The position numbers and the translations under genes were made by a program. The notes beneath the pieces are model-generated. The model did not search any database. It was not told the DNA's origin and worked only from the letters and a program-made list of their open reading frames with translations. Below, piece after piece: positions 2,842 through 59,409 of a stretch of DNA of 64,000 nt. The DNA lies in NCBI GenBank assembly GCA_000165345.1, contig CM000434.1, forward strand, positions 448,001-512,000. Reading direction: 5' to 3'. How positions within the stretch are numbered: the stretch's first letter is position 1; every line of letters starts with the position of its first letter.

Positions 2842-3004
2842 ATAATAGGCTTCAGAGTTCATGGTTTTTAATCAAGTCTTTTAAAATATTTTTTATGCTT
2901 GGTTTTAAGTGTTAATTAGGTGATTCGGTAATTTATTCTTCCACACAGTACACACGCTTAGACCGCCAACTCAAATTGACATTTAAAATTTCTTATCCAC
3001 TGAA

Positions 3005-40000: not shown

Positions 40001-40310
40001 TTAAGTCATTTTTTATTGTATTTATTAATAATCTAAGTAATTCTAAATTTCCCCTGTAAATTAATGAAGCAGCGATATAACCACATTGCTTAAATTCGAA
40101 AATATTTGAGCTAACCAACTCTAAAATTTCAAGCCATCCAAAGTCAATTTCATACCCCATTACGCTTATGTATGCTAATCTCCAAATTATCTTTTCTTTA
40201 TCCTTGAGAGATAATTGAGGACCTTTTTTGGAGCTATCATCTGTCTTCTCCAAAATAGATTTTAGATTAGAAATCTCATATTCAACTAATTCCATATTAT
40301 ATTTATACAA
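37005..40310 (-). CDS. Adaptor protein (AP) complex large subunit, adaptin family (alpha/gamma/delta/epsilon type; exact complex unresolved)
   Basis: 1101 aa. The N-terminal adaptin trunk signature 'ISNLKSIL...EKIIWRLAYISVMGYEIDFGWLEILELVSSNIFEFKQCGYIAASLIY' aligns with the conserved 'MLGYD..FG...L..S..F.EKR.GYL' block of AP large subunits. 'WLQVKLIEILELF' matches the adaptin 'PWLQ' motif. Its length fits an epsilon or delta subunit. Confidence 0.7.
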   Translation of the reverse strand: MYKYNMELVEYEISNLKSILEKTDDSSKKGPQLSLKDKEKIIWRLAYISVMGYEIDFGWLEILELVSSNIFEFKQCGYIAASLIYRGNLELLRLLINTIKNDLNNCFEVLVDKEKGSDKSRNFRQFSVGIGKNHSGKNIDIRKQKIKNCLLALNFIGNSPTLDFADNLFIDIKKLAEIPVEKQLNDTNIIRSKAICCLTKLFQCCPDRLRANEWGERLLSYFQFERNADCLISQCVFIKNSLKYYLNTEYLEPTENAYKNLNEQETDHSVLRDEREIINSNLNIKLVKIWEFIVPNLIFTLSRIRLYKEIKNWRFHKIPMFWLQVKLIEILELFPEVINDYFVNYKMNKIMEDVFFNAIHAIKSVNECNLSFSSTFDEIEFLCIIGIAIEMTKYFNKICNQELSANIGHLVGKFIEGLLYADNKDYISISISLIFESKTNKAIQELVKKNLVTLLRFTCSFDEDTTLNLLNIFSYICNKNNWVFITKEILNGVLYKYILNPYKLNIEEIHNIQKGSSDCFFPEKTKTLLEEIILSVCYTIRRFSNKNEVSYKTINVLFQTLEKSFCNPNPGFEITENTLFQITDILFDSKLKIECTDLMEKVNESLGNDISTQKYVAIKSYKLLNKLKNRRDNFNPRSGIRWLCFILGEYGKLISSKVSIIKQVEILLIIHDILTIDSEDDHIPLLKSTILLSFTKLYCNSDHETQNRIYEILKIGVGNRGNCIGSPEFLNAIVANTQYSVTPINGNITPVNIPSENNSALRYRDQLLDGVFNHKKNSLLIPNQSNKYGDDGYCSRNTWLSLCLSNKGSLYNFSLLSIGFSNGSFKYSSGESTIIVKLGKNEKNRIFNIERISTFCEEKKLSVKSSNNSFPNIFDSTSQNLHVEVFSETNKGFDNEGKFEQRINLICNGPYLNPPMISLLIRAFSNTKDEVSEINEQMEEINTDSNYSKLICINFRLPVILTNFMAPTKKMGKKEFGNFWEKLTQSSVKGILGISSLEIPIFLQLLNFCVYSVMDSIDDPSVSTPMIYGGTSTLYLSNRKRIPCMFKIIPCNEHSESFREDKIHDNGKNEEPVEIRVRSSSLIVAKILKQIISTYILSNSN

Positions 40311-40899: not shown

Positions 40900-43800
40900 C
40901 TAAGTAATCTTTAATATCTGTTTAAGTTTAAACTCCATCGAATCTTCAATTTTTTTTTCGCATTCTGGTACGTTGGAGATTTCATCATTCTTTTTTATCT
41001 TATTCTCTATGTTTCTTGAATTTAGGTAGTCTAGCCCATTTTTCTTTTTATTGATATTAATTGACAGCAATGACTTTAATTCAACAGCTAAGGGATGCTC
41101 ATTTGAATTAATATGTCTTATTTCAGTTTTATTCTTCGTCTTTCGGCATCTTAAATCTGAGTCATTACAATTATTATTATTATTATTATTTACTTCAGAG
41201 CTATTTTGTTTATCTGTGATTGATATTTCTTTCTTTCCCATTTGCTTTAAACTGCTATTTTGATTTTTCAGCCAATAATAACTATAATTATCACATTTTT
41301 TTTTGCTTTTTTCCGCTTTATTATTAAACTGCAAATCAAAGTTTAATATTTGTTTACTTATTATTTCTAAATGATTTTCATCTTTAAGATTTTGAATACA
41401 TGGTAGCAAAGGAATACACTCTGAAGATTTAACACTAATGCCTCTTAATTTAGAGCACATACCGTTTAAATTGTTTGCATTAATTTGAGTTTCATCCAAC
41501 AAAATATCAATAATTGTTGACGGATAATATTCCTTGTTAACTTTTACTCCACAGCATACAGATACAACTGTTCCAACTGTTCCAAAGGGCAACAATCCAT
41601 CATTTGTATTTATATAAACTACCCTAGTCCCCAAAGGGTACCCAAATCTTGAAATTAATTTATTTATGCCAGAGTTAAACTGATTCTCTGACTGATAAAA
41701 ATGCTCATTCCTACATAATTTCGACAAATCTATATATTTATCATTTGTCTCGATTTGTGAATTTAGAATTAGTCTTTCCAATCTAGAAATTGTTGAAGGA
41801 AGCATTGTTGCTGAATTAGAACGTGAAGATAAAAATGGTAAATTTCTATATAATTTACCCTTAATTATCTTTATCATTACATTAAATTTGAAGTCTTGAT
41901 CTTTTGAATCAATCAAATCCGAGAAAATATCCTTGACATGTATTTTCTTTAAGTTAAATACGTTTTCAACCTTTTCATTGTTATTGTCAATATTAAATGT
42001 GTTTGAGCAAATATTTTTTCCTTCAGAATTTATTATGTGTTCATCTAACTCTCCCTGGTCCAATAATACCAAACTTTTAAAAATAGCCAAAACAAAACAA
42101 GGGAAAAGGTCTAAATATTCTAATATTGATTTTATTGCTTCGTTGCTAACAATAGGAGTCCCAAGTTCCACATTAGTATTCGATGATGTAATAAATGAAT
42201 TTTCATCTACGAATTTACTATATAAAGGTAAATAAAGCTTATTTTTTAATTTATTTTCAAATTTAAAAAGATTCATCGATATTTCTTGCAAAGTACTATC
42301 GTTGCACTTCACTTGAATTGGACCAATAATTAGTTTCTTAAGAAATAAGGTTGAAAAGCGCATATACTCAAGTGATTTAGTAGCATCTAATCCGCATTTT
42401 GTGTTTAAGCAATTTAACAAGGGTTTGTATATTATTTTTGCAACATCCTCAATAGAAAACCATTGTATTGAAGATAAGTCTTCCAAAGCATATTCAAAAA
42501 TTCTCTTTTGAAGTTGTTCCACTTTATTCTTGTTTTTTGGAATTCGAAATAGTACTAATCTTTGAGCTTCATCTACAATTGTGCCGATATATCCATAGTT
42601 TGGATTTTGTTTATTAATGCAAAGGAGCTTTTCACCTAAATTTATTTTACTAATCTGCTTAAAACGTTCAGCCTCACTCTCTTTTAAATCTGAATACAAT
42701 AATATTAGTGGTAGCAAATAGTGTTTTGATATTTTTGAGAAGTTAAATTCAACCTTGCCACTCTCAGTAATGTAACTGCTCTCAGCAACTCTAGCCTCAA
42801 CAAGACAATTTACTGGATCAGATATATCCTTCAGTTCAGCATCAAAATCTTTCAAGTCTAAAACTTCTTTGCAATTAACCAACTTTGAAATGGAAAGCAA
42901 TTCTTCATCAATATTCATTGAATTTGAGGGGGAAAGAACAATTCCTCGTTTCTTTAGAAGTGAATTTTCATTAAATAATAAACGAATAAACTCTTTAGGA
43001 TTGTTGTTAGGTTCAATAATAGGTTTTGTCAGCAGCTTCGGTCTTAGAATATATCTCAAAGTTTTTATTGAAACAAGCTCAGCAACCTTCATTCTAGGAT
43101 AGTCAACCAATATTCTTATACCTGGATTTCTTGTATTAATGGAAGGTAGAAAGAGATTATTTAAAAACTCCTTTGAAATATGAGATGAAGATATTGAGGA
43201 AAAAATTGATTCATTACTACTTTCAGTCCCAAAAACACTTATCCCAGAACTATAATAAATTCTATAAGGAATTCTGCAAAGGTTTGGGAACCAATCGAAA
43301 GGTAATATTGTATTATCTAGTAAATAATTAGGGAAGTTTGATACACCGTCAGGGAATGCCGGATGATAAAACGATTTTGAAACTACCTTCGAGTTAGTAA
43401 TGGAAGGTAAGTATAATTTCACTGTGCTTTCAATTTTAGGAGTAGGAAATGCATAGTTATCCAAATAGAAAATAAATGGTCTCCCTTCCTGATTTCTGGC
43501 TTTATCTTCGGTATCTAAAAACTCCGAACTATTGATAATTGATGAATGAGTATTTGTATTAGCATCAATTAAATTTTCTAATTCACTTGTACTTAAATAA
43601 AATTTATACCGATTTTTCAGTTCATATTCAAAATTAGTCTTTATTTTGATTTCAAAATTTCTAAAATCAGAGTCATAAAAACCACATTTTGAAAGAACAT
43701 ATGTAATTGAATCCAATAGAAGGAACTCATCAATAAAAGGAATTAATGTTACGCCACCCCAAGGAACCTTGACGCCTTCCATATCAACTTCAAAGTTAGC

Positions 43801-45666
43801 CGGATAAAAACTCAATAATGGTGAGTTTGGATTAGTAAACAGCTTCCTAAATGGCTTTGGTAAAAGATCCTTGCTATTTGAAGGAAGAACCCCCATTAGT
43901 TGCTCAAACGGTTGCAATGGATTTCCTTTAATAAACCGAAATGCTAACCCATTAAGCTCGATTTCCTCCGAATACATTGTGTGAACAAACATCAATTTAG
44001 AAGAACCATATTTAACAATATCATCTCTACTCAATGTTGAAATACTCTTATTTTGTAGCCAACAACTTAAAATAATGGCAATATCACATGCAAATGGCGC
44101 ATACCTATAAGGGTAATACCATCTCCATGAAGGAACACCTCTAAAATAATAATAGCTGACCCATTGCAAACCCTCAAGGTAACAAAAAACAATATCTTCA
44201 ATAGAATTAGTTGTTATCCTATTGGAATTCGTGTTAGATTTAATATTTGCTTGATTTTGAACATTTGAATTTTCTGGGAAAAACTTATCGATATTTATTG
44301 CCATTTTTACAAAGTAATATCTCCAACGCATAACTTCAAAATTTTCGGGTCTAGTTTCTTGCCACTTTGCCCTAAATTTATCTTGTTCTATAGAGTCTGA
44401 TTTCATAAACCTTGGAACACCTATTGAATCTGAACTAATTTTGTTTTGGTCTGGGATTACCTTTTTCCAATAATCTGGATTAGAAATACGTTTTTCAGCT
44501 TCTTCTTTCTCCGAAATAATATGCCAAATTAGAAACCGTAACAAATTTACATAATTGATTCTACCACAATCTTCGAGTATCCATGGAGAACTACTCAACT
44601 TCATTAAAAAAAAATGAGCCAAATACTTTCTATAACTACTTATTATCCTTGCTAGTCCTTGATCAACAGTGTGGAATGGGATATGAGGGAGAAAATCATT
44701 TCCAACAATGAAGCCTAAGATAATAAAATCGTCAATAAGGCGTTCTCCATCTATTAAAACGTTATCGAAAATACTAATTTGATCCTGTGAATCATTTTTC
44801 AGTCCAAACTTGTATCCGAAACATAAATTTAACTCCTCAACACTTAAATTTCTAGGATTTAAATCATTTATAATATAATCTCTTAAAATAGAGATATGCA
44901 GAAATTGAAACCTTTCCTTTGTGCAAACCGTTCTACTCTCATAATTTCTTGAACTTGAAAATTTTATTTCTTCCCTCAACAAAGAAAAATGTGGTTCATG
45001 AGAAGCAAGAGAAAGCATTATCAAATCAGCATCAAGGCCATACAAGCAATGAGTCGTGTTGTTATTATAGTCTCTTTGGGATTTAATACAACGTATGAAA
45101 TCCATTATTTTATGTTCGCCTTCACCAGGTACGTCAGCTCCACTTAAAACAACTTCTAAATGTTTCCATAATGGATCAGTATGTATTTGATGGTAAATAA
45201 AAAATTCCAGTTGTCTCCGCAACTCATGCATAAAAGTCGTACCAGGAGTTATACAATTCGAATCAAAAACGTTATTTTGTGTTGTATCAATAGAATTATT
45301 TTTCTCCATTTTCTTTAGAAACTCTGAATCCCTTGCAGACCTAAATCTTCTACTTCTTTGTTGATTCATTTTAGCTCTAGGAGCAACCCCATCAACTGCA
45401 ATATAAAGTAATTTCCTAGGTTTAGCTATGTATACCAACTTATTTATATATCTAAAAATAGCAGCCCAAATTTCTGGAGACCCTTTTTCAGATAAATTAA
45501 TCCCATTACTTGGAGTGCGCATTTCACTAGAATTCACACTATTGTGAGCAATTCCATTTACATCCAAATATAAATTATCAAATGGTGGTATAATTCCATC
45601 TGATATTTCCTCATTAATTTGAGGATACCTTTCTGATATCCATCTATAGAATCTCGAGATTCCCAT
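40900..45666 (-). CDS. 5'-3' exoribonuclease, XRN family (length suggests cytoplasmic XRN1-like)
   Basis: 1588 aa. The N-terminus 'MGISRFYRWISERYPQINEEISDGIIPPFDNLYLDVNGIAHN' matches the XRN catalytic N-terminal consensus ('MGVPKF(F/Y)RW..ERYP...FDNLYLDMNGI.H'). Acidic active-site residues are in the expected places ('LDADLIMLSL', 'GEGEHKIMDFIR'). Confidence 0.85.
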   Translation of the reverse strand: MGISRFYRWISERYPQINEEISDGIIPPFDNLYLDVNGIAHNSVNSSEMRTPSNGINLSEKGSPEIWAAIFRYINKLVYIAKPRKLLYIAVDGVAPRAKMNQQRSRRFRSARDSEFLKKMEKNNSIDTTQNNVFDSNCITPGTTFMHELRRQLEFFIYHQIHTDPLWKHLEVVLSGADVPGEGEHKIMDFIRCIKSQRDYNNNTTHCLYGLDADLIMLSLASHEPHFSLLREEIKFSSSRNYESRTVCTKERFQFLHISILRDYIINDLNPRNLSVEELNLCFGYKFGLKNDSQDQISIFDNVLIDGERLIDDFIILGFIVGNDFLPHIPFHTVDQGLARIISSYRKYLAHFFLMKLSSSPWILEDCGRINYVNLLRFLIWHIISEKEEAEKRISNPDYWKKVIPDQNKISSDSIGVPRFMKSDSIEQDKFRAKWQETRPENFEVMRWRYYFVKMAINIDKFFPENSNVQNQANIKSNTNSNRITTNSIEDIVFCYLEGLQWVSYYYFRGVPSWRWYYPYRYAPFACDIAIILSCWLQNKSISTLSRDDIVKYGSSKLMFVHTMYSEEIELNGLAFRFIKGNPLQPFEQLMGVLPSNSKDLLPKPFRKLFTNPNSPLLSFYPANFEVDMEGVKVPWGGVTLIPFIDEFLLLDSITYVLSKCGFYDSDFRNFEIKIKTNFEYELKNRYKFYLSTSELENLIDANTNTHSSIINSSEFLDTEDKARNQEGRPFIFYLDNYAFPTPKIESTVKLYLPSITNSKVVSKSFYHPAFPDGVSNFPNYLLDNTILPFDWFPNLCRIPYRIYYSSGISVFGTESSNESIFSSISSSHISKEFLNNLFLPSINTRNPGIRILVDYPRMKVAELVSIKTLRYILRPKLLTKPIIEPNNNPKEFIRLLFNENSLLKKRGIVLSPSNSMNIDEELLSISKLVNCKEVLDLKDFDAELKDISDPVNCLVEARVAESSYITESGKVEFNFSKISKHYLLPLILLYSDLKESEAERFKQISKINLGEKLLCINKQNPNYGYIGTIVDEAQRLVLFRIPKNKNKVEQLQKRIFEYALEDLSSIQWFSIEDVAKIIYKPLLNCLNTKCGLDATKSLEYMRFSTLFLKKLIIGPIQVKCNDSTLQEISMNLFKFENKLKNKLYLPLYSKFVDENSFITSSNTNVELGTPIVSNEAIKSILEYLDLFPCFVLAIFKSLVLLDQGELDEHIINSEGKNICSNTFNIDNNNEKVENVFNLKKIHVKDIFSDLIDSKDQDFKFNVMIKIIKGKLYRNLPFLSSRSNSATMLPSTISRLERLILNSQIETNDKYIDLSKLCRNEHFYQSENQFNSGINKLISRFGYPLGTRVVYINTNDGLLPFGTVGTVVSVCCGVKVNKEYYPSTIIDILLDETQINANNLNGMCSKLRGISVKSSECIPLLPCIQNLKDENHLEIISKQILNFDLQFNNKAEKSKKKCDNYSYYWLKNQNSSLKQMGKKEISITDKQNSSEVNNNNNNNCNDSDLRCRKTKNKTEIRHINSNEHPLAVELKSLLSININKKKNGLDYLNSRNIENKIKKNDEISNVPECEKKIEDSMEFKLKQILKIT
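41170..41190. repeat. (ATT)7 trinucleotide microsatellite encoding poly-Asn inside the XRN gene
   Basis: 'attattattattattattatt' corresponds to 'NNNNNNN' in the minus-strand ORF. Confidence 0.8.
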
Positions 45667-46190: not shown

Positions 46191-49100
46191 TTATGCAGCG
46201 TTACAAGTTGGCCCAATACATGTTGTTTCATATGACACAATTGGGGTCGTTATAACTTTCTTGACGCAACCTGTACTAGTTTTTTCTGTATTGTCTGGGC
46301 ATCTACTATCTGGTTTTGTTACCAAAACGCACTCCTTATTGTCAAACAAAGTATATGGATCATTGCATGTTAATGAGAATGGAGCATATTCAACAATATA
46401 GCATGTGCCATCTTGATCGGTAACATACCCAGATGGACAACTGGAAACTACTGGTGTAGATTCTATCTTTTCACAACCACCGGATGGGCACACCTTAGGT
46501 GCGAATCTTGCGCATCTATCACCCAATAGTTGACTATCAGCTGTACAGCTTAATGAATATGGAGCAAAAACTTCTCTTGAACAAACAGTTGTCCTCACAA
46601 TGCTTACTTCCTGAGTAACTGCATGATGATGATGATGATGTCCTAGAGCGTGATGATGTCCAGAACTATGATGTGGATGATTTGAAGCTGTTCCTAAAGA
46701 CCTTCTGGTTCCTTGGGCAACTCCAGCCTCCATTGTGTAACCCGGTGGGCAAACAAGCTCTGGTGGGAATGTTCTTATTCTCTCGCAATCGCCATTTGGA
46801 CAGACTTTATCTGCATATTTTGCGCACTTATCGCTGATAACTATTAATCCAGGTGGGCATGCCAATTCATAATCTGCATATTCATTAGCAATACACCTCT
46901 GTCCACTTCTCTCAAAGTTTTGAGGACAAGAGAGAATTGGTGGTATATAACTGATTCTTTCACAATTGTTGTTTGGACAAACCTTTGCTGTTGATTGTTG
47001 GCACATATCTCCCAATAATCTGAATCCATCTGGACATTGTAGTGCATATGGCTCATAAACATTTCTCATACATTGACTTGCTCCACTGGCTTTATGACCA
47101 TGGGATCTGATTGCAACACCAGCCTGAGGTCTATAATATCCAGGTGGGCACTCCATCGTTGGTGGTGAACGAATGAGTTGTTCGCAGTTTCCATCTGGGC
47201 AAACTTTAACAGTATGGATCGCGCATTTATCTCCGATTATTGAATAATTATCTGGACAAGAAAGGTCATAAGGTGTATATATTTGTTTTGTACACTCTTG
47301 TAATAACTGGTTTCCATGTCCATGTCCATGTCCTGCATGATCTGAATGATGATTTGATTGTGGTCTAGTAAATCCAGGTGGGCATACCATATTGGCAGGT
47401 TTACTTATCAATCTCTCGCAGTTACCATTTGGACAGATTTTATTTGTAAACAATGCACATCTATCCCCTAATAACACGAACCCTGATGAACATACTAAAC
47501 TATACTCTTCAAAAATAGTTCTAACACATTCTGCTGAAGGTGTTGAATAATGATGTGTTCCGGCGGTATGCTTGCTTGAAATTGCTGTTTGAATTCCGTT
47601 GGCATTTCTGTAACCTTGTGGACATGAAAGAGTTGGTGGAACGACGACTTGTTTTCTGCAGTCACCTTGTAGACAAATTTTTTCTGTTTTTTCGATACAT
47701 TTGTCGCCATCTAAAATAAATGGAGATTCGCATTTTAAAATATAAGGTACTGAAATTGTCTTAATGCACTCAGGGGAAGCTAGATTTCTGTGATGATGAT
47801 GATGATGATGATGATGTCCTTGATAAATTGTGCCGGTTTGGTAAACTGGAGTTGGATAAGTTGTTAAAATTTCCTGTGTTTGATGAATTACTTGTGGCTG
47901 ATAATTTACTTGTCTTTGTTGAATTACTTGTGGTTGGTTAATAGTTTGTGGTTGGACGGGAACAGAAACATTTGGATGGTTAATATGAGAATGGCTTATT
48001 GGCTGAATTGGTTTAGATGATGAGAATCCTGGAGGGCATACTAATTCAGCAGGCTCATTATATATACGCTCGCAATTACCATTTGGACATATTTTATCCG
48101 AATATGTAACACATTTATCCGCTACAAGTCTTGATCCAACAGGACAGATAAGATTATATGGAGCATGGTCTGCATGGATGCATTTCATTTGCTGAATAGG
48201 AGCAACAACTGGAACTGGTTGTGGTGGCTGAGAAATTACAGGAGTATATTTATGTCCATGAGAATATCCCTTTTGAGAAGTAGATTGAACCCCAGCTAAG
48301 TGTCTGTGGTGTGGATGAGCAGAAATATTCATAACTTCATCTATTTGGTGATATCCAGGGGGACAAGTTAAAGAAACAGGCGCAGTTACAACTCTTTGGC
48401 AACTTTCATTCGGGCAAACTTTTTCTCTTGTGGTAGCGCATTTGTCTCCAACCAATGCATATCCTGCAGGGCATGCAAGATCATATGGTGAATATTTGTT
48501 AACTTGACATTGAGATCCTACATCTACAGAACCTGGCGGACATTTTAAAGTAGGTGGAGTTTTTACAAACTTAGCACACTCTTTTGATCTTGTTCCATCT
48601 TGACAAATTGCTTCTAATGGGTAGTAATTTGTTAATACACATTCTTTTCCTACAAGTTCAGCATTGTTCTCGCAAATAGGCACAGCTGGGACAGAATCAG
48701 CTTTTGTACAAGTTTTTGGGGTAATTTTTGGAACATCTTCACAAATTGGCCTTGGAGCCTCTTTATGATGTTGTGTATGTATATTCTGGGTTTGAATTGG
48801 TATAACTTGTGAATGTGAATGCCCATGAGAATGACCATGATGATGTCCTGGATTTTGTATCTCAGATGTTTCATAAACTGTTGATGTTTCTTTTGCAGCT
48901 GCTAATCTTCTTAGTGCTTTAACATCAGGTGTTTTACACTCTGTAACATAAGTTGTTACTGAACAGTCATATTGGCTTCTTCTAACACATTGTTTACCTG
49001 TTTCCAATGAATAACCAGGTGGGCATTCCAAAACAGGCGAACTAATCGATCTCTCTACGCAAACGTCCCCCTCTCTAGTACCAACAGGACAAACGTATTG

Positions 49101-51062
49101 AAGAGCCCCGGGAACAAGTCTTGTGCACGAGTCTCCATCCAACGCAGAACCTGGAGGACATTCTGGTGTTTTTGGTGAGGTAGTTGTTTGAACACACTGT
49201 TGATTTTGTAGAGTGAATCCAGTAGGACATACAGTTGAAGCAGGAGAAAATTGGATACAATCGTCTCCATTTGGTAAAAATCCATCTGGGCAGATAGCAT
49301 CGATCATTTTTAGTGCAGTACATTGATTTCCTTGAAGTTTATATCCTGGTGGACATTCTGAAACAGGAGGTGCTTCTTTTATTTGCTCGCATTGGGATCC
49401 AGAAAGTGTATATCCAGGTGGGCATTCTCTGTTTGGTGCGGAGAAAGAAGCACAATTTGTACCATTATCAATAAAACCAGTTGGACATACCATATTTATC
49501 CTTTCAACTTTTTGGCATTGTCCATTTACCAGGTTTGTACCTGGAGGACACTCTGGTTGTGGTGGAGCTTGAGTAGTTTGGGTACATTGTTTTCCAATTA
49601 ATACAAAACCTGTTGGACACTCCTTTTCTGGTTGAGAAAACTGAACACAGTCTGATCCATTGTCGAGATATCCAGGTGGACAAATGGCATCTTCTAGTTC
49701 ATATGAAATACAACTGTTATTTTCCAAGGTTGTACCTGGTGGGCATTCTGTTAATCTTGGAGCAGATTCTGTTTTAACACATTGTTTTCCGGAAAGAGAA
49801 AATCCTTGGGGGCAAATTTTCTCTGGTGCAGAAAATTGGACACAATCTTCGCCATTATCTACAAACCCTGGTGGACAAATTGTATCAACTCTTTCTATCG
49901 ATTGACATTGATCATCTTTTAAAATTGTACCTGGTGGGCATTCGAATTCCATGGGAGCATTTACCATTTGAACGCACCTGTTCCCACTCAATGTAAACCC
50001 GGGTGGGCATTCCTTTGTGACTGGAGAATATTTTACACAATCTTTTCCATTGTCTAAAAATTCTGGTGGACAGATAGCATCGATTGCTTGGACTGAAATA
50101 CAGGCATTATCTTGTAATACTGTACCTGGAGGGCAGACAGGTTGAGTTGGAGCAGAACTAGTTTGTATACATTGGAGGCCTTGTAAAATGAAATTTGGTG
50201 GGCATTCCTTTGCAGGAGCTACATATAGTACACAATCATCTCCTGAGTCTGTATATCCTGGTGGGCAGACCATATCAATATTTTTAATCACTTTACATTT
50301 TCCATTTTCAAATATTGAATTAGGTGGGCATGTCGATTCTAATTCAGCTGATTCTGGTGCCATACATTGTTGTCCTGACAAATTGAATCCAGGAGGACAG
50401 ATTTTATTTGCAGGGAGATATTGAACACATCTATTTCCTTCTTCAACAAAACCAGAAGGACAAACGGTATCAATTTGTTGAATTAATTTACATGTGCCAT
50501 TCTCCAGTATAGTGCCTGGAGGACATTCTGGATTAGGAGGAGCTGTGTCTGATTGAACACATTGTTTTCCAGAAAAAACGAATCCTGGGGGACATGATTT
50601 TTCAGGCATAGTGAATGCAACACAATCTCTTCCATTATCTACGAAACCAGGGGGACATACTGTATCTATCATATGTTTAGAGATACACTCTGTTCCATGT
50701 AATGTAGTACCTGGAGGACAAGATGGTTGTTGAGAAGCGGTTTTAGTAGCAGTACATTGCTTTCCTGATATTTCGTATCCTGGTGGACATTGCTTTAGTG
50801 GTGCTGTTACTATTAAACAATGCCCCTCGTGATAGATTGCTGGTTCCTGACAGAAAGGCATAGGAGGAACCTGGATACGTTGGACACAAACTCCATTCTC
50901 CATTAAATACCCTGGAGGGCAGCTTTCTAGCGGAGTTTCAACATACGTAGGTACCTGGCCTTTTGTGTGTGGCAAAGGGGAAGCTACACCAGGAATGTTG
51001 GGTTTAACCTGAGGCGCACCAAATGCACCAATAATAAACGACAATAATAAAATACGTTTCAT
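46191..51062 (-). CDS. COWP1: Cryptosporidium oocyst wall protein COWP1 (cysteine-rich type I/type II repeat protein with His-rich tracts)
   Basis: 1623 aa. Signal peptide 'MKRILLLSFIIGAFGAP'. Dozens of 'CPPG(Y/F/T)...C' cysteine-repeat units in two arrays, plus His-rich tracts ('HHHHHHHHH', 'HGHSHGHSHS'). The published COWP primers cry-9 (50090..50114) and cry-15 (reverse complement at 50621..50642) match exactly. Confidence 0.9.
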   Translation of the reverse strand: MKRILLLSFIIGAFGAPQVKPNIPGVASPLPHTKGQVPTYVETPLESCPPGYLMENGVCVQRIQVPPMPFCQEPAIYHEGHCLIVTAPLKQCPPGYEISGKQCTATKTASQQPSCPPGTTLHGTECISKHMIDTVCPPGFVDNGRDCVAFTMPEKSCPPGFVFSGKQCVQSDTAPPNPECPPGTILENGTCKLIQQIDTVCPSGFVEEGNRCVQYLPANKICPPGFNLSGQQCMAPESAELESTCPPNSIFENGKCKVIKNIDMVCPPGYTDSGDDCVLYVAPAKECPPNFILQGLQCIQTSSAPTQPVCPPGTVLQDNACISVQAIDAICPPEFLDNGKDCVKYSPVTKECPPGFTLSGNRCVQMVNAPMEFECPPGTILKDDQCQSIERVDTICPPGFVDNGEDCVQFSAPEKICPQGFSLSGKQCVKTESAPRLTECPPGTTLENNSCISYELEDAICPPGYLDNGSDCVQFSQPEKECPTGFVLIGKQCTQTTQAPPQPECPPGTNLVNGQCQKVERINMVCPTGFIDNGTNCASFSAPNRECPPGYTLSGSQCEQIKEAPPVSECPPGYKLQGNQCTALKMIDAICPDGFLPNGDDCIQFSPASTVCPTGFTLQNQQCVQTTTSPKTPECPPGSALDGDSCTRLVPGALQYVCPVGTREGDVCVERSISSPVLECPPGYSLETGKQCVRRSQYDCSVTTYVTECKTPDVKALRRLAAAKETSTVYETSEIQNPGHHHGHSHGHSHSQVIPIQTQNIHTQHHKEAPRPICEDVPKITPKTCTKADSVPAVPICENNAELVGKECVLTNYYPLEAICQDGTRSKECAKFVKTPPTLKCPPGSVDVGSQCQVNKYSPYDLACPAGYALVGDKCATTREKVCPNESCQRVVTAPVSLTCPPGYHQIDEVMNISAHPHHRHLAGVQSTSQKGYSHGHKYTPVISQPPQPVPVVAPIQQMKCIHADHAPYNLICPVGSRLVADKCVTYSDKICPNGNCERIYNEPAELVCPPGFSSSKPIQPISHSHINHPNVSVPVQPQTINQPQVIQQRQVNYQPQVIHQTQEILTTYPTPVYQTGTIYQGHHHHHHHHHRNLASPECIKTISVPYILKCESPFILDGDKCIEKTEKICLQGDCRKQVVVPPTLSCPQGYRNANGIQTAISSKHTAGTHHYSTPSAECVRTIFEEYSLVCSSGFVLLGDRCALFTNKICPNGNCERLISKPANMVCPPGFTRPQSNHHSDHAGHGHGHGNQLLQECTKQIYTPYDLSCPDNYSIIGDKCAIHTVKVCPDGNCEQLIRSPPTMECPPGYYRPQAGVAIRSHGHKASGASQCMRNVYEPYALQCPDGFRLLGDMCQQSTAKVCPNNNCERISYIPPILSCPQNFERSGQRCIANEYADYELACPPGLIVISDKCAKYADKVCPNGDCERIRTFPPELVCPPGYTMEAGVAQGTRRSLGTASNHPHHSSGHHHALGHHHHHHAVTQEVSIVRTTVCSREVFAPYSLSCTADSQLLGDRCARFAPKVCPSGGCEKIESTPVVSSCPSGYVTDQDGTCYIVEYAPFSLTCNDPYTLFDNKECVLVTKPDSRCPDNTEKTSTGCVKKVITTPIVSYETTCIGPTCNAA
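46623..46640. repeat. (ATG)6 / (CAT)6 microsatellite encoding a His tract in COWP1
   Basis: 'atgatgatgatgatgatg' on the plus strand corresponds to HHHHHH in the minus-strand ORF. Confidence 0.8.
47791..47816. repeat. (TGA/CAT)n about 9-unit microsatellite encoding the H9 tract of COWP1
   Basis: 'tgatgatgatgatgatgatgatgatg' corresponds to 'HHHHHHHHH' in the minus-strand ORF. Confidence 0.8.
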
Positions 51063-51316: not shown

Positions 51317-54300
51317 TTGGAATGTGTTTTTTCAATAATTTTTGATCGGATTGTAAATTTATTGGATAAAACCAATCAATTTTTTGGGCGCAATTTTCAG
51401 AGATGGATTACATTAACATTAAATATTATGAATACTGACATACTTGAAAGTAGAAATAATAGAAGGCCAAGATATGTTTCAATTAGCTTAAATAATGATG
51501 AATTAACACATTTTTGTCCATTCTTATCTGATAATGATGAAAAAGTCCTGTTTACGTTGACATGCAATTATCTTTCTTTGGGACAATTTGAGTTAGCAAG
51601 ATCAAGCATACTTCAGCTAAGTTCATTAAACTTTAGAAAGGTGTCTGAGCTACTTTATTCCATAATTTATTATGGTCCTCCCCCAGACTGGCAGCTTTCT
51701 GTCACAATTTCTACATCAGCACATTTTATACTTGCATGCATAAGAGAATATGAATCATTTTTCAGAAATAATACTAAAATTGAAAACTACATAATTAAAA
51801 GGACTGAGTTTGATTTATTAATTGGGCAAATGATAGCGGATATCTCCGATGTTAAAATTAGTTTTGAAATAATTAAGAAATTAAGAAATTTTTATTCCGT
51901 TTTTTTAATTAATGGACTTGACGTCAAAGTTCCAGAACTGAAAATCTTGCCAAAAATTGTTGGATTACCTTCTTATCTTAGCAGGCTTCCTTCATTTTCG
52001 ACAAATTTGAACAAATTATCTGAAAATTTATTGATTGACTTGGCAAATAATCAAGGAAAGTATCTTTCGATTAAAATAATTAATGAAATGTTTGAATGTT
52101 TTAATACATCTCGGAGATATTTTATTAAAATCGCAAAAATACTAATTATGGATCATTCGAATACATTAAAATTCGAGACTAGTTTGATCAAAGACAACTC
52201 AATACTTAAAAATACATTATCTTCTATCAATGTTAGCTTAAATTGGATTGGATTGAAGAATTGCATTATTGATCTGATTTTTTTCAAGGAAAATTGTGGA
52301 ATAATATCCTTAAATTCGCTTGGAGATATGATTTCAAAAAATATTTCAATAATTAAATTAGAAGATATTTTCGAAAATCATGATTTAGAGCTTACTAATT
52401 TTACATATGAAAAAGATGTTTCATCAAAAAACAACTTTACTAAAAATAAAAAGCCAGAGGATGTTATTTCAATAGTATTTATGATATTTTGCATAATAAA
52501 TCTATTTTGTAAATATAAACTGAACAAGGAGATTTTTCTTAAGTTTTTAGCTGACCAAATTGAAATTTTAAAGTCTTGTGAAGATATTTGTAACACATGT
52601 ATATTTGACTCTAGAATAATTTCAAATGTTAAAAGTCTATTTTCAGAAAATCTTCTTAAGCAATTAAGTAATTTTCAAAGCATTCATCAATACTTAAATG
52701 ATATAAATACAGTTAAATTTTTCGAAAATGATACTTATTCTGATCATATTGGAACACTTGTTAATTCAAATTCCGACCAAAATTTATTGTTTAAAATTGT
52801 TTTGGAATTTGACAATATTTTGTTTAATATTAATTTTGGAATAAGTAATTCTTTGGGAATTTTTTCATTACCAAGATATATTGAGAATAAAAATAAAGTT
52901 ACTTTAAATCCTATTTTAACTTACGATTTTTCAATAAATTGTAAATTTGATGAAAAGCCTTTTTTTTGGTGCGAATATTTAAGGTATTTAAATTTATCTA
53001 GAAATAAGTTTGAAGAGCTGCCCATTATTTTTATAACAAATTTATTTGACAAGATTTATAAAACCAAAAGAAATATTAATTCTTTTGAGTCTGCAAATAA
53101 AATTATTCTTTGTTTCCCACATTTAAGAGCAATTTGCGTTCATCTTGGGATGAAAAACGATCCTATTTTTAATTGGGAACTACTTAAGAACATCTGGTTG
53201 CCATTTAGATTAATTAGCAAAAACGAAGAATCACTTGTTGAGAGCAAATCTTTGGAACTCGATCTAGATGAAATATCAAGAAGACATGCAATTTCCATGT
53301 TTATTTCGGAAGAACTTAATTCGAATTTTTGCAGCGAGTTTAGATATAGTTCAAACAAAAATATTAGAAAAATATTTGAAGAAATAACTCTTAAAAAATC
53401 AATTATAAATTATTATTTTGATAATTTTAACTCTTCCAAAAAGTACACAACAATAAATTGGGTTTCACTGGAAGCATTTATTTCAAACATAATTTCTCTT
53501 CCACTAACAATTGGTAGTGATATTTCGTTATTAACAAAAGAAAGAGACTGCATAAAATCATACTTAATACAAAAAGAAGTTTTCGAGACAATTGATGGAA
53601 AGGGAAGTTCAAGCTTTGGGTTAAATTTACAGAACACATCTATTGAAATTGGAAATATTCAAACTGAATACTTTCATAATGAATTAATGTATTGTTTTTT
53701 TTGCCGAATTTTTATTTATTTAAAGAAAATTAAAATAAACAATTCGATTATTCATACTAAAAACAAAAAATTATTCAACATCACACAATTGTTGTACTAC
53801 TTATTTATTTGGAGTGATAGATTATCCAGAAATTTTCAAATTGAAATGCTTCCAGTTATTGAAAAAACTTTTGAAAAAACAATTTTGATGATTGAATTGA
53901 TATTATTTTCATTTCCATTTAATATTCCAAACTTGCCACTACCAAAAAATTTGGAAATTTTTTCTTGGTGGTATCGCTTTATTTTATCAACCCCATCAAG
54001 AGTATTCAATACAGGGAAAACAATAATCCGCTCAAGTAAAAGTTCAGAATATTTTCAAAATTTGTTTAAAGTTAGATGGGTTATTCGCGGAATTTATGAA
54101 AATAATCCATGGTATTCAAATTTATTTAGTTTTGAATCATTTTGTGTTTTAAATTATTACAACAATTCGACTAGAAATAATTACTCAGAAATATTACTTT
54201 TTCCTTCTATTCTTATTCTAAAGCTATTATCTATTCAGAACTATGAAAAATCTATTGAATTAATATTGAGTTCAAAATTTCACGTAAATATAACGCTAAT

Positions 54301-56365
54301 AGTTCTGGACGGTTTTATTTTCCATTCACTCTTTGAGGAAGAAGTAATTAATAATTATTGCAATATTAACAAAATTTATGGAATAATTAAAAACGCGAAA
54401 ACTGAAAGATTAACGAAACTTGATTTATTAAATATTAACAAGATTTCTTTATTTTCGGCAATGGAGGTATTTTCTATATATATTCAAACAAAATTTATCG
54501 ATAATGAAAATGAGATAGGCTGGATATTTTATGCTTTTCCTAAACTATATCAAGCATTCGTATTGATAGATCTCTATATTTGTTTTGGAAATAAAAATTC
54601 CTCAAATTTATTTGAAGATATAGCGAAGGCTAGAGATATGATAGAACAGTACACCAGTAATTTAAATATTAAATACAAGTCAGTGGTTCAAACTACTTTA
54701 GACAGACTTTTTATATTTTATCAGTCTTCCAGCACAATTTCTTTAACAAGATATATAATGGAGATAGATACATTACCAAATCAAAGTTCTCAGATAAAAA
54801 CTCATTTAAGCAGAATTCATGATAGAAAATTAATAACTACAACGTTAACTCAGTCATTAAATTATTTATCTGGCTTTTCTTTAATTAAACCACAAGACGA
54901 AAGTTTAATTAATATTAATCAAATTTTGGAACAAAGTTTATTTTCAAATTTTAATAACTCTAGCTATCTATTTTCAGTAATTCATTATATAAAGTCTATC
55001 ATTTCAGAGTTATTTTTAAATCTGGATAAGCACAAAGCATTTCCAATTTTAGCATTGACTCCAAATGAAATAATTTCCTACTCTTTCTTTGAAAGAAAGT
55101 TAAAAGGAGGTAGTAAGAGACTTTCGAGAATAATGAACGCAGACTTGATCTCTGTTATAATTAAAGCTCTTAATTGTTTTCATTGCTCAACATCAATGTT
55201 CAGGAACAGTGAAATTAGCTCACATAGTGATATGGAATTTCTAATTAAACAGCTTGATCCATTTAAGGGAACATTTGCAATGTTGTCCCACAATATTTTA
55301 CAGTCTAAAGATGTACAATATAGCTATTTTATATGGAAATTCGCCGTCAAGAATCGAATAAACTTTAGTCTTGAAAAAAAACAAATTATTCTAATTTCAT
55401 TGGAATACCGTATCTGGAAATACGATATACATAAGCAGCTTGAATCTAAAATATTTAATGCCAATATAGATAAGTTATCTGGATTCTTTACATCTAAATC
55501 TTTGGAATACTATAATTATTTATTAAAGTGGCTATCGATAATAATTACATTTTTTTCTCTAAATTGTAATGATTTACATCTTATAATGAATAAATTTGAT
55601 AAAACTATTGGTTTAATTAATTATTTATTCCCAATTTATTCTATTAGTCGTACTAATACTGTTGACAAAATTTTGTTTCAGTTATCCAGAGAAATGTTGA
55701 GAAATCAAAATATAATCAACCTACATTTGAATAATTTTAAACGAATAATAAAATTAAATAATCCATATTATCTTTATAGGTTAATAACTAGAGCTCAGGG
55801 AATATCAGATCCATATTTTATTTTGTCAATCATTGAAGTTACTAGCAAAAGTATAAAAAATAGCTATTCTGGAATTAAAAATTCTAAATCAAATAATTTC
55901 AAAAGTAAATTTATTGAAGAAAATATCTATGTAATTTTAAATGTCCAAAGGCTATTTTGTATTTCATATATTAAACATTTTAAAAATAATAGCGATATAT
56001 GGAATGAGTGGTTCATTTTGATTAAAAAGTGGGAAACAACGAAAGGTATAATATCAATGTTGAAATACTCAATAGAAATGAAGATGTTCAGTATAGCAAA
56101 AATTATATCTCAACAATTGCTATTTAAAGTTATAAAGCATTGTGGGGATGTTCAATATACAGAAAAAGAATTGAAACATTTTTTTTCTGGGGATAACTTT
56201 TTTGAAGAAATAGGAAAAGATAATAATTTCAATAATTTTTCTTTAGTTTCAATTGTCAATTATATTATTACAAATATTAGAGATGACAAATTTTTCAGAA
56301 ATATAACTTTATTAAATTATCTAAAGCTGTTGTTTCAAAATGGATTGGTAGTTTCGAAAGTATAA
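51317..56365 (+). CDS. Large (1682 aa) hypothetical protein (possibly the N-terminal part of a roughly 2700-aa gene together with 56413..59409)
   Basis: Uninterrupted 5-kb ORF, N/I/K/L/F-rich, with no recognisable domain. It terminates at 56363..56365 while the downstream ORF's frame is already open from 56287. Confidence 0.6.
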   Translation: MECVFSIIFDRIVNLLDKTNQFFGRNFQRWITLTLNIMNTDILESRNNRRPRYVSISLNNDELTHFCPFLSDNDEKVLFTLTCNYLSLGQFELARSSILQLSSLNFRKVSELLYSIIYYGPPPDWQLSVTISTSAHFILACIREYESFFRNNTKIENYIIKRTEFDLLIGQMIADISDVKISFEIIKKLRNFYSVFLINGLDVKVPELKILPKIVGLPSYLSRLPSFSTNLNKLSENLLIDLANNQGKYLSIKIINEMFECFNTSRRYFIKIAKILIMDHSNTLKFETSLIKDNSILKNTLSSINVSLNWIGLKNCIIDLIFFKENCGIISLNSLGDMISKNISIIKLEDIFENHDLELTNFTYEKDVSSKNNFTKNKKPEDVISIVFMIFCIINLFCKYKLNKEIFLKFLADQIEILKSCEDICNTCIFDSRIISNVKSLFSENLLKQLSNFQSIHQYLNDINTVKFFENDTYSDHIGTLVNSNSDQNLLFKIVLEFDNILFNINFGISNSLGIFSLPRYIENKNKVTLNPILTYDFSINCKFDEKPFFWCEYLRYLNLSRNKFEELPIIFITNLFDKIYKTKRNINSFESANKIILCFPHLRAICVHLGMKNDPIFNWELLKNIWLPFRLISKNEESLVESKSLELDLDEISRRHAISMFISEELNSNFCSEFRYSSNKNIRKIFEEITLKKSIINYYFDNFNSSKKYTTINWVSLEAFISNIISLPLTIGSDISLLTKERDCIKSYLIQKEVFETIDGKGSSSFGLNLQNTSIEIGNIQTEYFHNELMYCFFCRIFIYLKKIKINNSIIHTKNKKLFNITQLLYYLFIWSDRLSRNFQIEMLPVIEKTFEKTILMIELILFSFPFNIPNLPLPKNLEIFSWWYRFILSTPSRVFNTGKTIIRSSKSSEYFQNLFKVRWVIRGIYENNPWYSNLFSFESFCVLNYYNNSTRNNYSEILLFPSILILKLLSIQNYEKSIELILSSKFHVNITLIVLDGFIFHSLFEEEVINNYCNINKIYGIIKNAKTERLTKLDLLNINKISLFSAMEVFSIYIQTKFIDNENEIGWIFYAFPKLYQAFVLIDLYICFGNKNSSNLFEDIAKARDMIEQYTSNLNIKYKSVVQTTLDRLFIFYQSSSTISLTRYIMEIDTLPNQSSQIKTHLSRIHDRKLITTTLTQSLNYLSGFSLIKPQDESLININQILEQSLFSNFNNSSYLFSVIHYIKSIISELFLNLDKHKAFPILALTPNEIISYSFFERKLKGGSKRLSRIMNADLISVIIKALNCFHCSTSMFRNSEISSHSDMEFLIKQLDPFKGTFAMLSHNILQSKDVQYSYFIWKFAVKNRINFSLEKKQIILISLEYRIWKYDIHKQLESKIFNANIDKLSGFFTSKSLEYYNYLLKWLSIIITFFSLNCNDLHLIMNKFDKTIGLINYLFPIYSISRTNTVDKILFQLSREMLRNQNIINLHLNNFKRIIKLNNPYYLYRLITRAQGISDPYFILSIIEVTSKSIKNSYSGIKNSKSNNFKSKFIEENIYVILNVQRLFCISYIKHFKNNSDIWNEWFILIKKWETTKGIISMLKYSIEMKMFSIAKIISQQLLFKVIKHCGDVQYTEKELKHFFSGDNFFEEIGKDNNFNNFSLVSIVNYIITNIRDDKFFRNITLLNYLKLLFQNGLVVSKV

Positions 56366-56412
56366 TTGGATTTTTAAATAGTAATATTGGTATAGATGAA
56401 AAATATATTATT

Positions 56413-59409
56413 TTGGATGCCTATATTAATTCACAGAACTCTTCATTAGATGCCAATCGTATCAATATATTAAAGACTATACTGACTTCCATAAAATTGG
56501 TAAAAGACCTTAGGATGAGTAATATTCAAGCGTCCAATTTATTTTCTCCATATTTAATTATTAGGATGGCAATTATGTCAAGGAATAGTAGATTGATTGA
56601 AATATTAAAGAGAGATATTGATATTTTTCTAAAATCCGGGGATGTTTTATTAAATTTAATTGAAGAGTCATTTGGAATTATTGACGATAAACAGATACTA
56701 AAGGAAAAGATAAAAAAATCTTATATTTTTGGGCAAGCTGACATAAATTCGTGTATAAAATTATTTCCAATGATTGAAAATAATATTAAATTATGTTTAA
56801 ATATAGAAGATATTCCATCATACAACAATGATATATATTTTTCTATCAAACTGATTTCTATTATACCTAAAAAAAAAACAATGAGTGATCTTTTATTTAG
56901 TATCTCTAACAAGATATCAAACCAGCTTTACAGAATATTTAGAAATTCTATTTCAGATAATTCATTAATCCGCACAAGGTTTGAATGTAGTAATTCGCAG
57001 CTTTGGGTTGCTGAGGAAGGTTCATTAAAAATAATTCCTAACAGCCTACATCCTTTTTCCAAATTTTCAAAAGCAAAAAGAAACTCGTATTATATCAAAA
57101 ATCGGTGTCTAAATAAATATAAGAGCGGATTAAATATAAATTTAGAAAAGAGTTATAATAATAGAAATGAAATCAACATAGAAAATATTTCAAAATCAAG
57201 AATTTTATTTAGAAATTTATTTGTTTTATTAACTTGGGCAAGCGATTATATTGGGAAAAGCGAATTTAGCAAATCAATTAAAAGCTTAACACATTTATTT
57301 GAAATTTGGCAAAGGAATCCTGCATTATCATTCTCTTTGAAAGATTTTGTGTATATAAGTGATTATGTTATTCTAGTTCTAGTTTTCTCTGACCAAATAA
57401 AGATATTAAAAGATTTGAGTGAAAATAATATTCTTGAAACAAATATGAAGCCTTTAGATAAAAATCATGAACCAAAAAATTTAATTATTTGTAACATAGT
57501 TGCAAATTCAATTACAATTTCAAGAATGAACCAGTATTATAACGGAAAAAGTGACCATTCAAATCCCACTACCCTAAATGCATCTAAATCGAGAAATGAA
57601 ATGATAATGGATATATTTTGCAATAAATGGAAGATTAATAGAGGAAAAGTGACCAATATTGAAATTTTAAAGGGCAACACAGTGAGGATTATTGAAAATC
57701 TTTTACTTCTAAAGCCTGATATCTTGAATTTAAGTATTTTAATAATAATATTAACTTACCATTCATGGGGAAAGCTTCAAATGTATATTAGTGGGCAAAT
57801 AAAACGTATGTTACACTTTCCATGCGCATCAATATTAAATTTTAAATTTTTCAATTCAATATTTGAATTATATGAACAATTATTTATCTCAAATGTTAAA
57901 ATTAGAATGAATGAAATATATACAATTTCAGATTTAGTTTCAAACTGGAAAGATTTTTCTGTTGGAATTGAAAATAATTCAGATTTTTTTGAAAATTCTA
58001 ATGATAATTTGAGTTTGTCATATACCACATTTTTTTTAGAGAGAATAACAAATTCTATTAAAAAAAACTTATTCTTAAAATATAAAAAAGCAATTAAAAT
58101 GATAAAATGCATTCAAGTAAAAAAATTGAACAATATAATAATTTATTTTAACCAAAAAAAAGTGAACAACAAAAAATTCTTTCAACTTGACTTCATTAAT
58201 CACTTATTAATACAAAGTACTCCAAATCACTATTTTTTAATAAATACTTTTGTAAAATTAAATCTATGGTGGGAATTAATGGTTTACATTCTAAGATGGA
58301 GTTTTGAGCTTGGACCTTCCAAATCGAGATCTTTATTAATAGATAAAAGACGTGAAATACGAGCAAACAGTGAAAAAACTTTTGAAGAGATATTTTTTGA
58401 CCTGGTTATAAAAAAAGCTCATTCAAAAGGCCAATTAAATTCTCTGATCAATGCAATGAATGAAGCCGTACCATTGGGAGGCCCAAGAGCCGCTATAGTT
58501 GTGAAAAAGTGCAAAAATGCAATACAAAAATACTTAGAATGTAGTGGGGCTTTGGAAATGTTATATAGATCTTTTCTATCACTTTATATTTCAATTGAGA
58601 TTCCTCACGCACTTATGGGGGCAATAGCAATCCATCTTTCACTTCTAGACCATTTAAATATTGATTCAAGGACTGGATACTTAGAATCAGCTTTGTACCA
58701 TTTCAAAAATGCAAATTTGGTATTGAAAAAAAAAGTTAAGTCAGGAGTAATTAAAAAGAACAAACATGCATCTCCAACAAACTGTATTGACTGCGAAAGA
58801 ACTGCAGAAGTCCCATTTCTTTCTCAAAATTTGAATATTGGGAAATTAAACGACGTACTTATTCCATTTATCGCTGATATTCCAATTTATAAAATTAATA
58901 TTTCTCCTTGGGGTGGTCTTTCATTGCCAATAATACAAAGAATAATCAGATTAGTCGAGCTGCAAAATTCGATTATTAAACTCTTAATAAAAGAAAATTC
59001 ATCAATGTCAATTTTAAGTCCAAATTATAAGGATAGAAGAAATGTTATAGTAGTTCTCTTTCTTATTCGTGAATATCCTCTTGCATTTAAGACTTCTAAC
59101 ATGCTTGAAATACCATTGATGGAAATTTTGGTGCATGCGACTAAAGAACTGATAGTTTCTTATCCAAACAGCAATTCTCTTTATTGTTTTCTGGATTCAA
59201 TGAAACTATGGCTGTCAGAATACGACTCGGATGCACTAATATCAAATGCAATAAATATGTGGATCTCGGAAAAAAAAATAAATCTTAATAATATCCCAGA
59301 ATTAGAAAAAAACAGTATAATGGAACTCGTTAATAGGCTGTCAAACCCTTTGAGCAGAAGCGAAGCATTTAAAATGATAAATCCTTTGGAAAGAGTTAAA
59401 TTAAGTTAA
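56413..59409 (+). CDS. Large (998 aa from first TTG/ATG) hypothetical protein, possibly continuous with the upstream 1682-aa ORF
   Basis: Same strand and the same amino-acid composition as the upstream ORF. Its reading frame is open back to 56287 and overlaps the last 26 codons of the upstream ORF. The track's start at 56413 is a TTG codon; the first ATG is further downstream. The real start is therefore uncertain. Confidence 0.5.
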   Translation: MDAYINSQNSSLDANRINILKTILTSIKLVKDLRMSNIQASNLFSPYLIIRMAIMSRNSRLIEILKRDIDIFLKSGDVLLNLIEESFGIIDDKQILKEKIKKSYIFGQADINSCIKLFPMIENNIKLCLNIEDIPSYNNDIYFSIKLISIIPKKKTMSDLLFSISNKISNQLYRIFRNSISDNSLIRTRFECSNSQLWVAEEGSLKIIPNSLHPFSKFSKAKRNSYYIKNRCLNKYKSGLNINLEKSYNNRNEINIENISKSRILFRNLFVLLTWASDYIGKSEFSKSIKSLTHLFEIWQRNPALSFSLKDFVYISDYVILVLVFSDQIKILKDLSENNILETNMKPLDKNHEPKNLIICNIVANSITISRMNQYYNGKSDHSNPTTLNASKSRNEMIMDIFCNKWKINRGKVTNIEILKGNTVRIIENLLLLKPDILNLSILIIILTYHSWGKLQMYISGQIKRMLHFPCASILNFKFFNSIFELYEQLFISNVKIRMNEIYTISDLVSNWKDFSVGIENNSDFFENSNDNLSLSYTTFFLERITNSIKKNLFLKYKKAIKMIKCIQVKKLNNIIIYFNQKKVNNKKFFQLDFINHLLIQSTPNHYFLINTFVKLNLWWELMVYILRWSFELGPSKSRSLLIDKRREIRANSEKTFEEIFFDLVIKKAHSKGQLNSLINAMNEAVPLGGPRAAIVVKKCKNAIQKYLECSGALEMLYRSFLSLYISIEIPHALMGAIAIHLSLLDHLNIDSRTGYLESALYHFKNANLVLKKKVKSGVIKKNKHASPTNCIDCERTAEVPFLSQNLNIGKLNDVLIPFIADIPIYKINISPWGGLSLPIIQRIIRLVELQNSIIKLLIKENSSMSILSPNYKDRRNVIVVLFLIREYPLAFKTSNMLEIPLMEILVHATKELIVSYPNSNSLYCFLDSMKLWLSEYDSDALISNAINMWISEKKINLNNIPELEKNSIMELVNRLSNPLSRSEAFKMINPLERVKLS

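Follow-up and report, generated by a model that had tools for sequence, protein, structure and literature searches.

The two long open reading frames (ORFs) that follow one another in different frames on chromosome 6 of the Cryptosporidium parvum Iowa II assembly of 2004 are almost certainly the two halves of a single intronless gene of 2,660 amino acids (aa), to which we assign a probability of about 0.98. The window, as the whole stretch of DNA analysed is called here, comprises 64,000 nucleotides (nt) of contig CM000434.1 (GCA_000165345.1, positions 448,001 to 512,000) and has a GC content of 30%. The gene is interrupted at one point, where a single A is missing. This indel is confined to the present record, and the gene is single everywhere else that was compared. 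The break is very likely a base-calling or assembly omission in the 2004 record, as judged from the sequences compared, rather than something present in the parasite itself. The protein that the merged gene would encode probably belongs, as a divergent member without a FYVE finger, to the ZFYVE26/SPG15 (spastizin) family.

Two reading frames and one missing base

The positions of both ORFs, of the junction between them and of the neighbouring genes are given in Table 1. The original prediction had placed the stop of the upstream ORF at 56363-56365 with frame 1 open from 56287, and had both frames free of stops in between; an ORF scan agrees on both points. Frame 3, which is noncoding, contains 299 stops in ~3,333 codons. 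Because stops occur at ~9% per codon in this noncoding frame, the ORFs are far longer than expected by chance, and a stop-free run of 998 codons has p ~1e-41. The 26 codons for which frame 2 reads on after the break are unremarkable (p ~0.09). The residues I, L, S, N and K are abundant in both ORFs, so the shared skew in composition that had been noted was real, although it is not unusual, being ordinary for a genome of 30% GC.

Translated from its first ATG at 51428, the upstream ORF yields 1645 aa and is exactly EAK89866.1/XP_627570.1. Translation of the downstream ORF from its first ATG (56515) yields the 964 aa of EAK89867.1/XP_627571.1, again an exact match. Both are listed as hypothetical proteins of Iowa II. 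The upstream gene is identified as cgd6_2100 from the name cpbgf_6002100 and from the pair CHUDEA6_2100/cgd6_2100 (Isaza et al. 2015), and the downstream gene we infer to be cgd6_2110.

A closer inspection of the junction revealed that GATGACAAATT in the window reads GATGAACAAATT in all other sources compared, so that the window has GATGA-CAAATT where the others carry one more A. The GA at 56285-56286 forms the first two bases of codon E1620; the restored A completes this codon as GAA and the frame is kept. With the A added, the same ATG and the same stop enclose one ORF of 2,660 aa, as is seen in the DNA of BX526834 and CpBGF. Frame 1 opens exactly at 56287 because the missing A sits at 56286/56287. 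The expectation that a single-base indel within the overlap would fuse the ORFs was therefore borne out, the indel being found at the 5′ edge of that interval. Read in frame 1, the bases 56287 to 56365 give QIFQKYNFIKLSKAVVSKWIGSFESI, which is conserved coding sequence.

The loss of one A from an AA dinucleotide would take translation out of the true frame. A ribosome reading the sequence as deposited would add 26 spurious codons before meeting the frame-2 stop, while the true frame would run on to 59409. The original annotators would then have called two genes, namely cgd6_2100 with 1645 aa and a gene of 964 aa begun at an internal methionine.

Table 1. Features of the split gene and its surroundings (positions in the window)
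Feature	Position	Strand	Remarks
Upstream ORF	51317-56365	+	frame 2; 1682 aa from TTG; TAA at 56363-56365
Downstream ORF	56413-59409	+	frame 1; 998 aa from TTG; stop at 59407-59409
Last frame-1 stop (TGA)	56284-56286	+	frame 1 open from 56287 to 59409, noncoding upstream of the indel
Missing A	between 56286 and 56287	+	GATGA-CAAATT in the window; GATGAACAAATT in other sources
N-terminal part of gene	51428-56286	+	frame 2; codons 1-1619 (D1619 = GAT, 56282-56284)
C-terminal part of gene	56287-59409	+	frame 1; residues Q1621-S2660 plus stop
Out-of-frame tail	56287-56365	+	frame 2; DKFFRNITLLNYLKLLFQNGLVVSKV plus TAA; specific to this record
Apparent intergenic gap	56365-56514	+	coding, residues 1647-1696
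BT1/MFS transporter	24483-25301 and surroundings	+	one 434-aa product in 43IA8 (L005 4786-6349)
STT3	25447-27615	-	722 aa
CNOT1	28991-36985	+	2,664 aa
Adaptin large subunit	37005-40310	-	1,096 aa; Pfam Adaptin_N E 3e-19, N-terminal 100 residues only
XRN 5′-3′ exonuclease	40900-45666	-	1,588 aa
cEGF-repeat protein	46191-51062	-	1,623 aa

The junction in other C. parvum sequences

C. parvum-type DNA was compared from BX526834.1 (Iowa, 2003), CP141123.1 (the telomere-to-telomere (T2T) assembly of CpBGF), CP029785.1 (43IA8) and CM109966.1 (HLJ), together with the Logan assemblies of the SRA runs SRR5007564 and DRR729209. The extra A is read in all six. Across the contigs retrieved, AA is present at the site in loci L001-L004 and L007-L011. 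Away from this base the agreement with the window is striking. BX526834.1 is identical over 17,945 base pairs (bp) but for one gap, as is CP141123.1 over 14,486 bp. The 43IA8 sequence and the SRR5007564 contig are each identical over 9,983 bp with the same gap, and 43IA8 matches a further 27,995 bp of the window with zero differences.

The survey then took in 24 contigs on which the exact 1623-aa neighbour is encoded. The 2,660-aa gene lies beside this protein in 19 contigs from SRA runs as well as in 43IA8 and HLJ. The others belong to CpBGF, together with one similar place that is collapsed, and to BX526834; in both, split gene models overlie intact DNA. The 1645 plus 964 arrangement was found in none of the 24, and an exact-sequence cluster look-up records the frameshifted 1645-aa product only for Iowa II.

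As a side observation, the DRR729209 Logan contig (L006/L008) shows 9 substitutions and 1 indel relative to the 28 kb of window positions 18991-46986. Over these same positions 43IA8 is 100% identical to the window and hence essentially Iowa-type here.

Orthologues and conservation across the junction

A first, word-indexed protein search with a fused junction query of 594 aa had P0001 as its sole match, the candidates being saturated by low-complexity words. P0001 (BX526834.1, GCA_000209695.1) is continuous across the junction (...NIRDEQIFQKYNF...). Orthologues were obtained from the exact-sequence cluster look-up and from an exhaustive search of representative proteins. They are single genes of 2,622-2,710 aa in 12 other Cryptosporidium species: C. 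hominis (2,658-2,659 aa), C. tyzzeri (2,660 aa), C. meleagridis (2,654 aa), C. ubiquitum (2,658 aa), chipmunk genotype I (2,655 aa), C. felis (2,644 aa), C. canis (2,622 aa), C. ryanae (2,649 aa), C. xiaoi (2,653 aa), C. muris (2,707 aa), C. andersoni (2,703 aa) and C. serpentis (2,710 aa). The original prediction had proposed to ask whether the orthologues of C. hominis and C. meleagridis are one ORF or two, and each has one. Its headline, that a frameshift splits a single gene of ~2,700 aa, is thereby upheld by the single-gene orthologues as well as by the one-base comparison.

In the exhaustive phmmer search with the frame-1 translation, four representatives of 2,644-2,707 aa were matched over a span of ~1610-2693. 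The matches begin at query residues 2-17, that is 5′ of any ATG, and at orthologue positions ~1610-1660. The multiple alignment passes through the junction without a gap and follows frame 1 thereafter; no counterpart of the frame-2 tail of the window was found in it. In C. hominis, chipmunk genotype I, C. felis, C. ryanae and C. muris respectively, identity amounts to 96, 69, 42, 46 and 15% over the overlap, to 96, 72, 30, 34 and 30% over the supposedly intergenic stretch before the first ATG, and to 96, 75, 42, 36 and 27% over the whole gene. Conservation in the "intergenic" stretch thus shows no drop relative to its flanks. A ratio of nonsynonymous to synonymous substitution rates (dN/dS) of 0.32 has been reported for CHUDEA6_2100 versus cgd6_2100, in a table that has no entry for cgd6_2110 (Isaza et al. 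2015, PMC4637869). The gene is under purifying selection, as the dN/dS of 0.32 indicates.

Gene models over intact DNA

The GenBank annotations of IOWA-ATCC and of CpBGF T2T keep two genes over intact DNA. Their upstream model (QOY41090.1/WRK32809.1) is labelled "partial", comprises 1646 aa without a stop and reads ...NIRDEQIFQKY...GSFESI. It spans 4,939 nt, which is the Iowa II coding sequence of 4,938 nt plus the extra base, and for this reason the split looks like a lift-over of coordinates from Iowa II. In CP141123.1 the two models occupy 1913-6851 (1,646 aa) and 7001-9895 (964 aa) in L002 coordinates, equivalent to window positions 51428-59409. The 2003 annotation of BX526834.1 (L001/L011) cuts the continuous ORF in another way, into a model of 1,412 aa and one of 974 aa, both with introns; the latter starts with MLKYSIEM (window ~56057) and passes through the junction. 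In papers and their supplements, cgd6_2100 and cgd6_2110 were found solely in a phylogenomic marker list and in the dN/dS table of Isaza et al., and no literature naming this locus as a split-ORF artefact was found.

Alternative explanations

Four GenBank annotations (Iowa II, IOWA-ATCC, CpBGF and BX526834) carry two models, as would be expected if the ORFs were two neighbouring genes, whether paralogous or unrelated, that are transcribed into different mRNAs. That reading is very improbable. The two-gene annotations are not evidence for two genes, because those of IOWA-ATCC and CpBGF are explained by the stop-less lift-over and the cut in BX526834 lies elsewhere, with its second model reading through the junction. 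Moreover, a single gene was annotated independently in 43IA8, HLJ, C. hominis and 11 other species, and the N- and C-terminal halves are collinear on the single chain of the ZFYVE26 family (see below). The suggestion that the ORFs are adjacent paralogues fails outright, since BLASTP detects no similarity between them (best E 3.6). There is next to no chance that programmed -1 ribosomal frameshifting within 56287-56365 lets the deposited sequence yield the complete protein. A programmed -1 site consists of a slippery heptamer of the form X XXY YYZ and a downstream structure. Moving from frame 2 into frame 1 does amount to a -1 shift, and two long same-strand ORFs overlapping in this configuration resemble such sites; an A/T-rich heptamer, AAATTTT, is even present at 56288. 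However, it is the sole heptamer in the overlap and its phase is that of frame 3, whereas translation arrives in frame 2, so that no slippery heptamer exists there in the upstream phase. The relatives, furthermore, all have a continuous ORF and none conserves the overlap, and the alignment with the orthologues resumes at the first codon after the indel, where E1620 needs the extra A. Programmed frameshifting, another option left open by the original prediction, is accordingly rejected. That the spliceosome removes a short intron at the junction is just as implausible. The original prediction had tried six plausible GT...AG pairs there (donors at 56348, 56351 and 56360, acceptors at 56381 and 56395) without joining the frames; these six do fail, but 22 others of length 2 mod 3 would formally join them (e.g. 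56348-56436, 89 nt), all with stop-free products. Each of these candidates, however, would either cost residues that the orthologues conserve or leave the unconserved frame-2 tail in the product, and the intact allele of all other records needs no intron.

The remaining question is whether the base was lost in the record or in the parasite. The indel is private to this record and the gene is single; that an error produced the indel is the part that we infer, and among the four options of the original prediction it is the best supported, the A being present in all other sources. The indel is missing from independent sequences of the same strain and lineage, as is typical of an artefact. Isaza et al. 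(2015, PMC4637869) trace split C. parvum ORFs to parts of the Iowa assembly that are of low quality, and the 114 pseudogenes of the reannotated 2004 assembly fell to 1 in a long-read assembly (Baptista et al. 2022, PMC8744675). The present case resembles these artefacts in being a one-base indel in an old Sanger reference, where C. hominis and newer C. parvum assemblies have an unbroken ORF, and differs from them in that the split survives in the IOWA-ATCC and CpBGF T2T annotation despite intact DNA. Several points weigh against an error and a single gene. The call was made from assembled sequences, which leaves a real deletion in the DNA sequenced in 2004 some probability. The change from AA to A involves no long homopolymer, and such a site is no typical place for an error. 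The CpBGF paper sets CpIOWA II genes against CpBGF reads, and cgd6_2100 is missing from the frameshift variants that it lists (PMC12179316), although the gene model or the variant filters used there may differ. The two-gene models of IOWA-ATCC and CpBGF may also have been retained for transcript reasons. A real deletion, arisen in the Iowa II stock sequenced in 2004 and truncating the protein after residue 1619 as a lineage-private pseudogene or allele, would account for the deposited sequence, and would agree with the absence of a long homopolymer; the CpBGF list, being silent on the gene, provides no independent sign of an error here. It is nevertheless unlikely. The A is present in the other Iowa-derived records, namely BX526834 of 2003, IOWA-ATCC (judged by protein QOY41090.1) and CpBGF, and also in 43IA8, HLJ and the 19 SRA-run contigs. 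The flanking 10-28 kb are otherwise identical, which leaves no divergence time visible; the gene is intact in the 12 other species; and 113 of the 114 pseudogenes of the old assembly vanished on re-sequencing. Neither is this the picture of a pseudogene, with one lesion in one record, both halves otherwise intact and a dN/dS of 0.32. Of the earlier suggestion of a genuine frameshift or pseudogene there remains a private frameshift, at long odds. On a reading with a slightly smaller chance still, the deletion is real and a widely used laboratory line would carry a truncated SPG15-like AP-5 accessory protein, without the 1,040 conserved residues at its C-terminus. Propagation in calves would then be possible without that half of the protein, or without the AP-5/SPG11/SPG15 pathway as a whole.

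Probable relationship of the merged protein to ZFYVE26/SPG15

Neither ORF contains a Pfam domain above noise, and the same is true of nine orthologues and of their metagenomic homologues. The statement that the ORFs have no recognisable domain therefore holds for Pfam; it does not extend to profile chaining, by which the merged protein can be assigned to the ZFYVE26/SPG15 family. A profile built from the nine orthologues retrieved metagenomic proteins of ~2,100 aa (P0026-28) with E-values of 3e-31 to 9e-20, and the N-terminal, middle and C-terminal matches between these and Cryptosporidium are collinear. In turn, a profile of P0026-28 retrieved plant proteins named "ZFYVE26-like TPR repeats domain-containing protein" that carry PF25569 (E ~1e-17). 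When the wider family P0026-P0040 was searched as a profile against PDB, the sole match was human ZFYVE26 (8yad_C, E 1.6e-89), collinear over residues 307-2316. Alignment of the Cryptosporidium family with P0026-P0040 by hhalign gave a probability of 99.9 (E 4e-35) over residues 23-1253. The half covered by the upstream ORF aligned alone with a probability of 99.9 (E 1.7e-36, residues 22-1253), and that of the downstream ORF with 94.4 (E 8.7e-8, residues 2323-2530 against family positions 1884-2060). Collinear, near full-length homology to ZFYVE26 proteins is thus found through the chain of profiles, and the link to the human protein is transitive via these intermediates. The upstream ORF falls on the N-terminal part of this family and the downstream ORF on its C-terminal part, an independent argument that the gene is single.

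The likeness to ZFYVE26/SPG15 (human 8YAD chain C) extends to the size class of ~2,100-2,700 aa, to a predicted all-helical solenoid and to three collinear blocks, an N-terminal CNYLSLGQFELAR ... PSTAHL, a middle ETLP...HL.R.H and a C-terminal HA..GAIAIHLSL ... GYLESA..HF. However, the Cryptosporidium protein is extremely divergent and has an AT-biased composition.

Direct comparison with the plant proteins gave a probability of 97.0 (E 9e-11) for the N-terminus. Against membership in this family stands the corresponding comparison of the C-terminal half, which is weak, albeit collinear (probability 8.8%, E 0.004). PF25569 (TPR_ZFYVE26) had no match at E<=1 in the nine Cryptosporidium orthologues, nor did Pfam FYVE match the Cryptosporidium protein or its orthologues; human ZFYVE26 differs in both respects. 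Fold searches with an AlphaFold2 model of the C-terminal 1,040 aa, which is helical and of low confidence (predicted local distance difference test (pLDDT) 59), returned generic solenoid matches only, so that the structural evidence speaks neither for nor against the assignment. The Cryptosporidium profile or P0026 alone had zero matches among PDB sequences. The C-terminal Cryptosporidium alignment, set by hhalign against the lone human ZFYVE26 C-terminus, fell in the expected region without being significant (probability 0.24%, E 0.26).

PF25569 is found in plant and protist members at residues 2252-2380 and is also absent from P0026-28, P0035 and P0036. The PI3P-binding (phosphatidylinositol 3-phosphate) FYVE zinc finger is what gives human ZFYVE26 its name. 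The homologues from Cryptosporidium, metagenomes and plants contain neither (R/K)(R/K)HHCR nor CxxC...HHCxxC, and none of the ZFYVE26-like plant and protist proteins examined among P0040-P0056 has a FYVE signature. As it is absent from the non-metazoan homologues examined, the FYVE finger does not define the wider family.

Human SPG15 is built as alpha-solenoid-FYVE-alpha-solenoid, is intertwined with SPG11 and works with AP-5 (bioRxiv 10.1101/2024.06.14.598999). The distribution of SPG11 and SPG15 tracks that of AP-5 (PMC3191125), and cryptosporidia are reported to keep AP-5 except for its sigma subunit (PMC4501334). By homology, the merged protein may act as a solenoid scaffold that pairs with SPG11 and AP-5 in late-endosome/lysosome sorting. 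It is a candidate partner for the near-complete Cryptosporidium AP-5 and makes this poorly understood pathway slightly more testable. No literature on an SPG15 homologue in Cryptosporidium was found.

The closest relatives outside Cryptosporidium (P0026-P0034) are SPG15-like proteins of 2,040-2,200 aa from metagenome assemblies. Their contigs (for example L012, ENA ERZ27263685 contig k141_1481632) are gene-dense, apparently intron-poor and eukaryotic, and the genes nearby encode kinases, a SET-domain protein and ribosomal S9.

Implications for annotation

The frameshift itself is almost certainly no biological feature, and its value lies in curation: three GenBank annotations can be fixed and a "hypothetical protein" receives a family name. 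Of the two 2004 Iowa II proteins, one ends in a false tail of 26 residues and the other begins at an internal methionine. Orthology assignments, knock-outs, expression counts and proteomics built on these models use the wrong gene structure.

Neighbouring genes

The surroundings of the split gene are listed at the end of Table 1; CNOT1, the XRN exonuclease, STT3 and the cEGF-repeat protein are unremarkable neighbours. The adaptin large-subunit gene lies ~11 kb from the SPG15-like gene. The BT1/MFS transporter, a single product in 43IA8, is called in two pieces of 96 and 233 aa in a contig from an SRA run (L006 4786-5076 plus 5610-6311), which is probably due to an intron or to a difference in gene calling.

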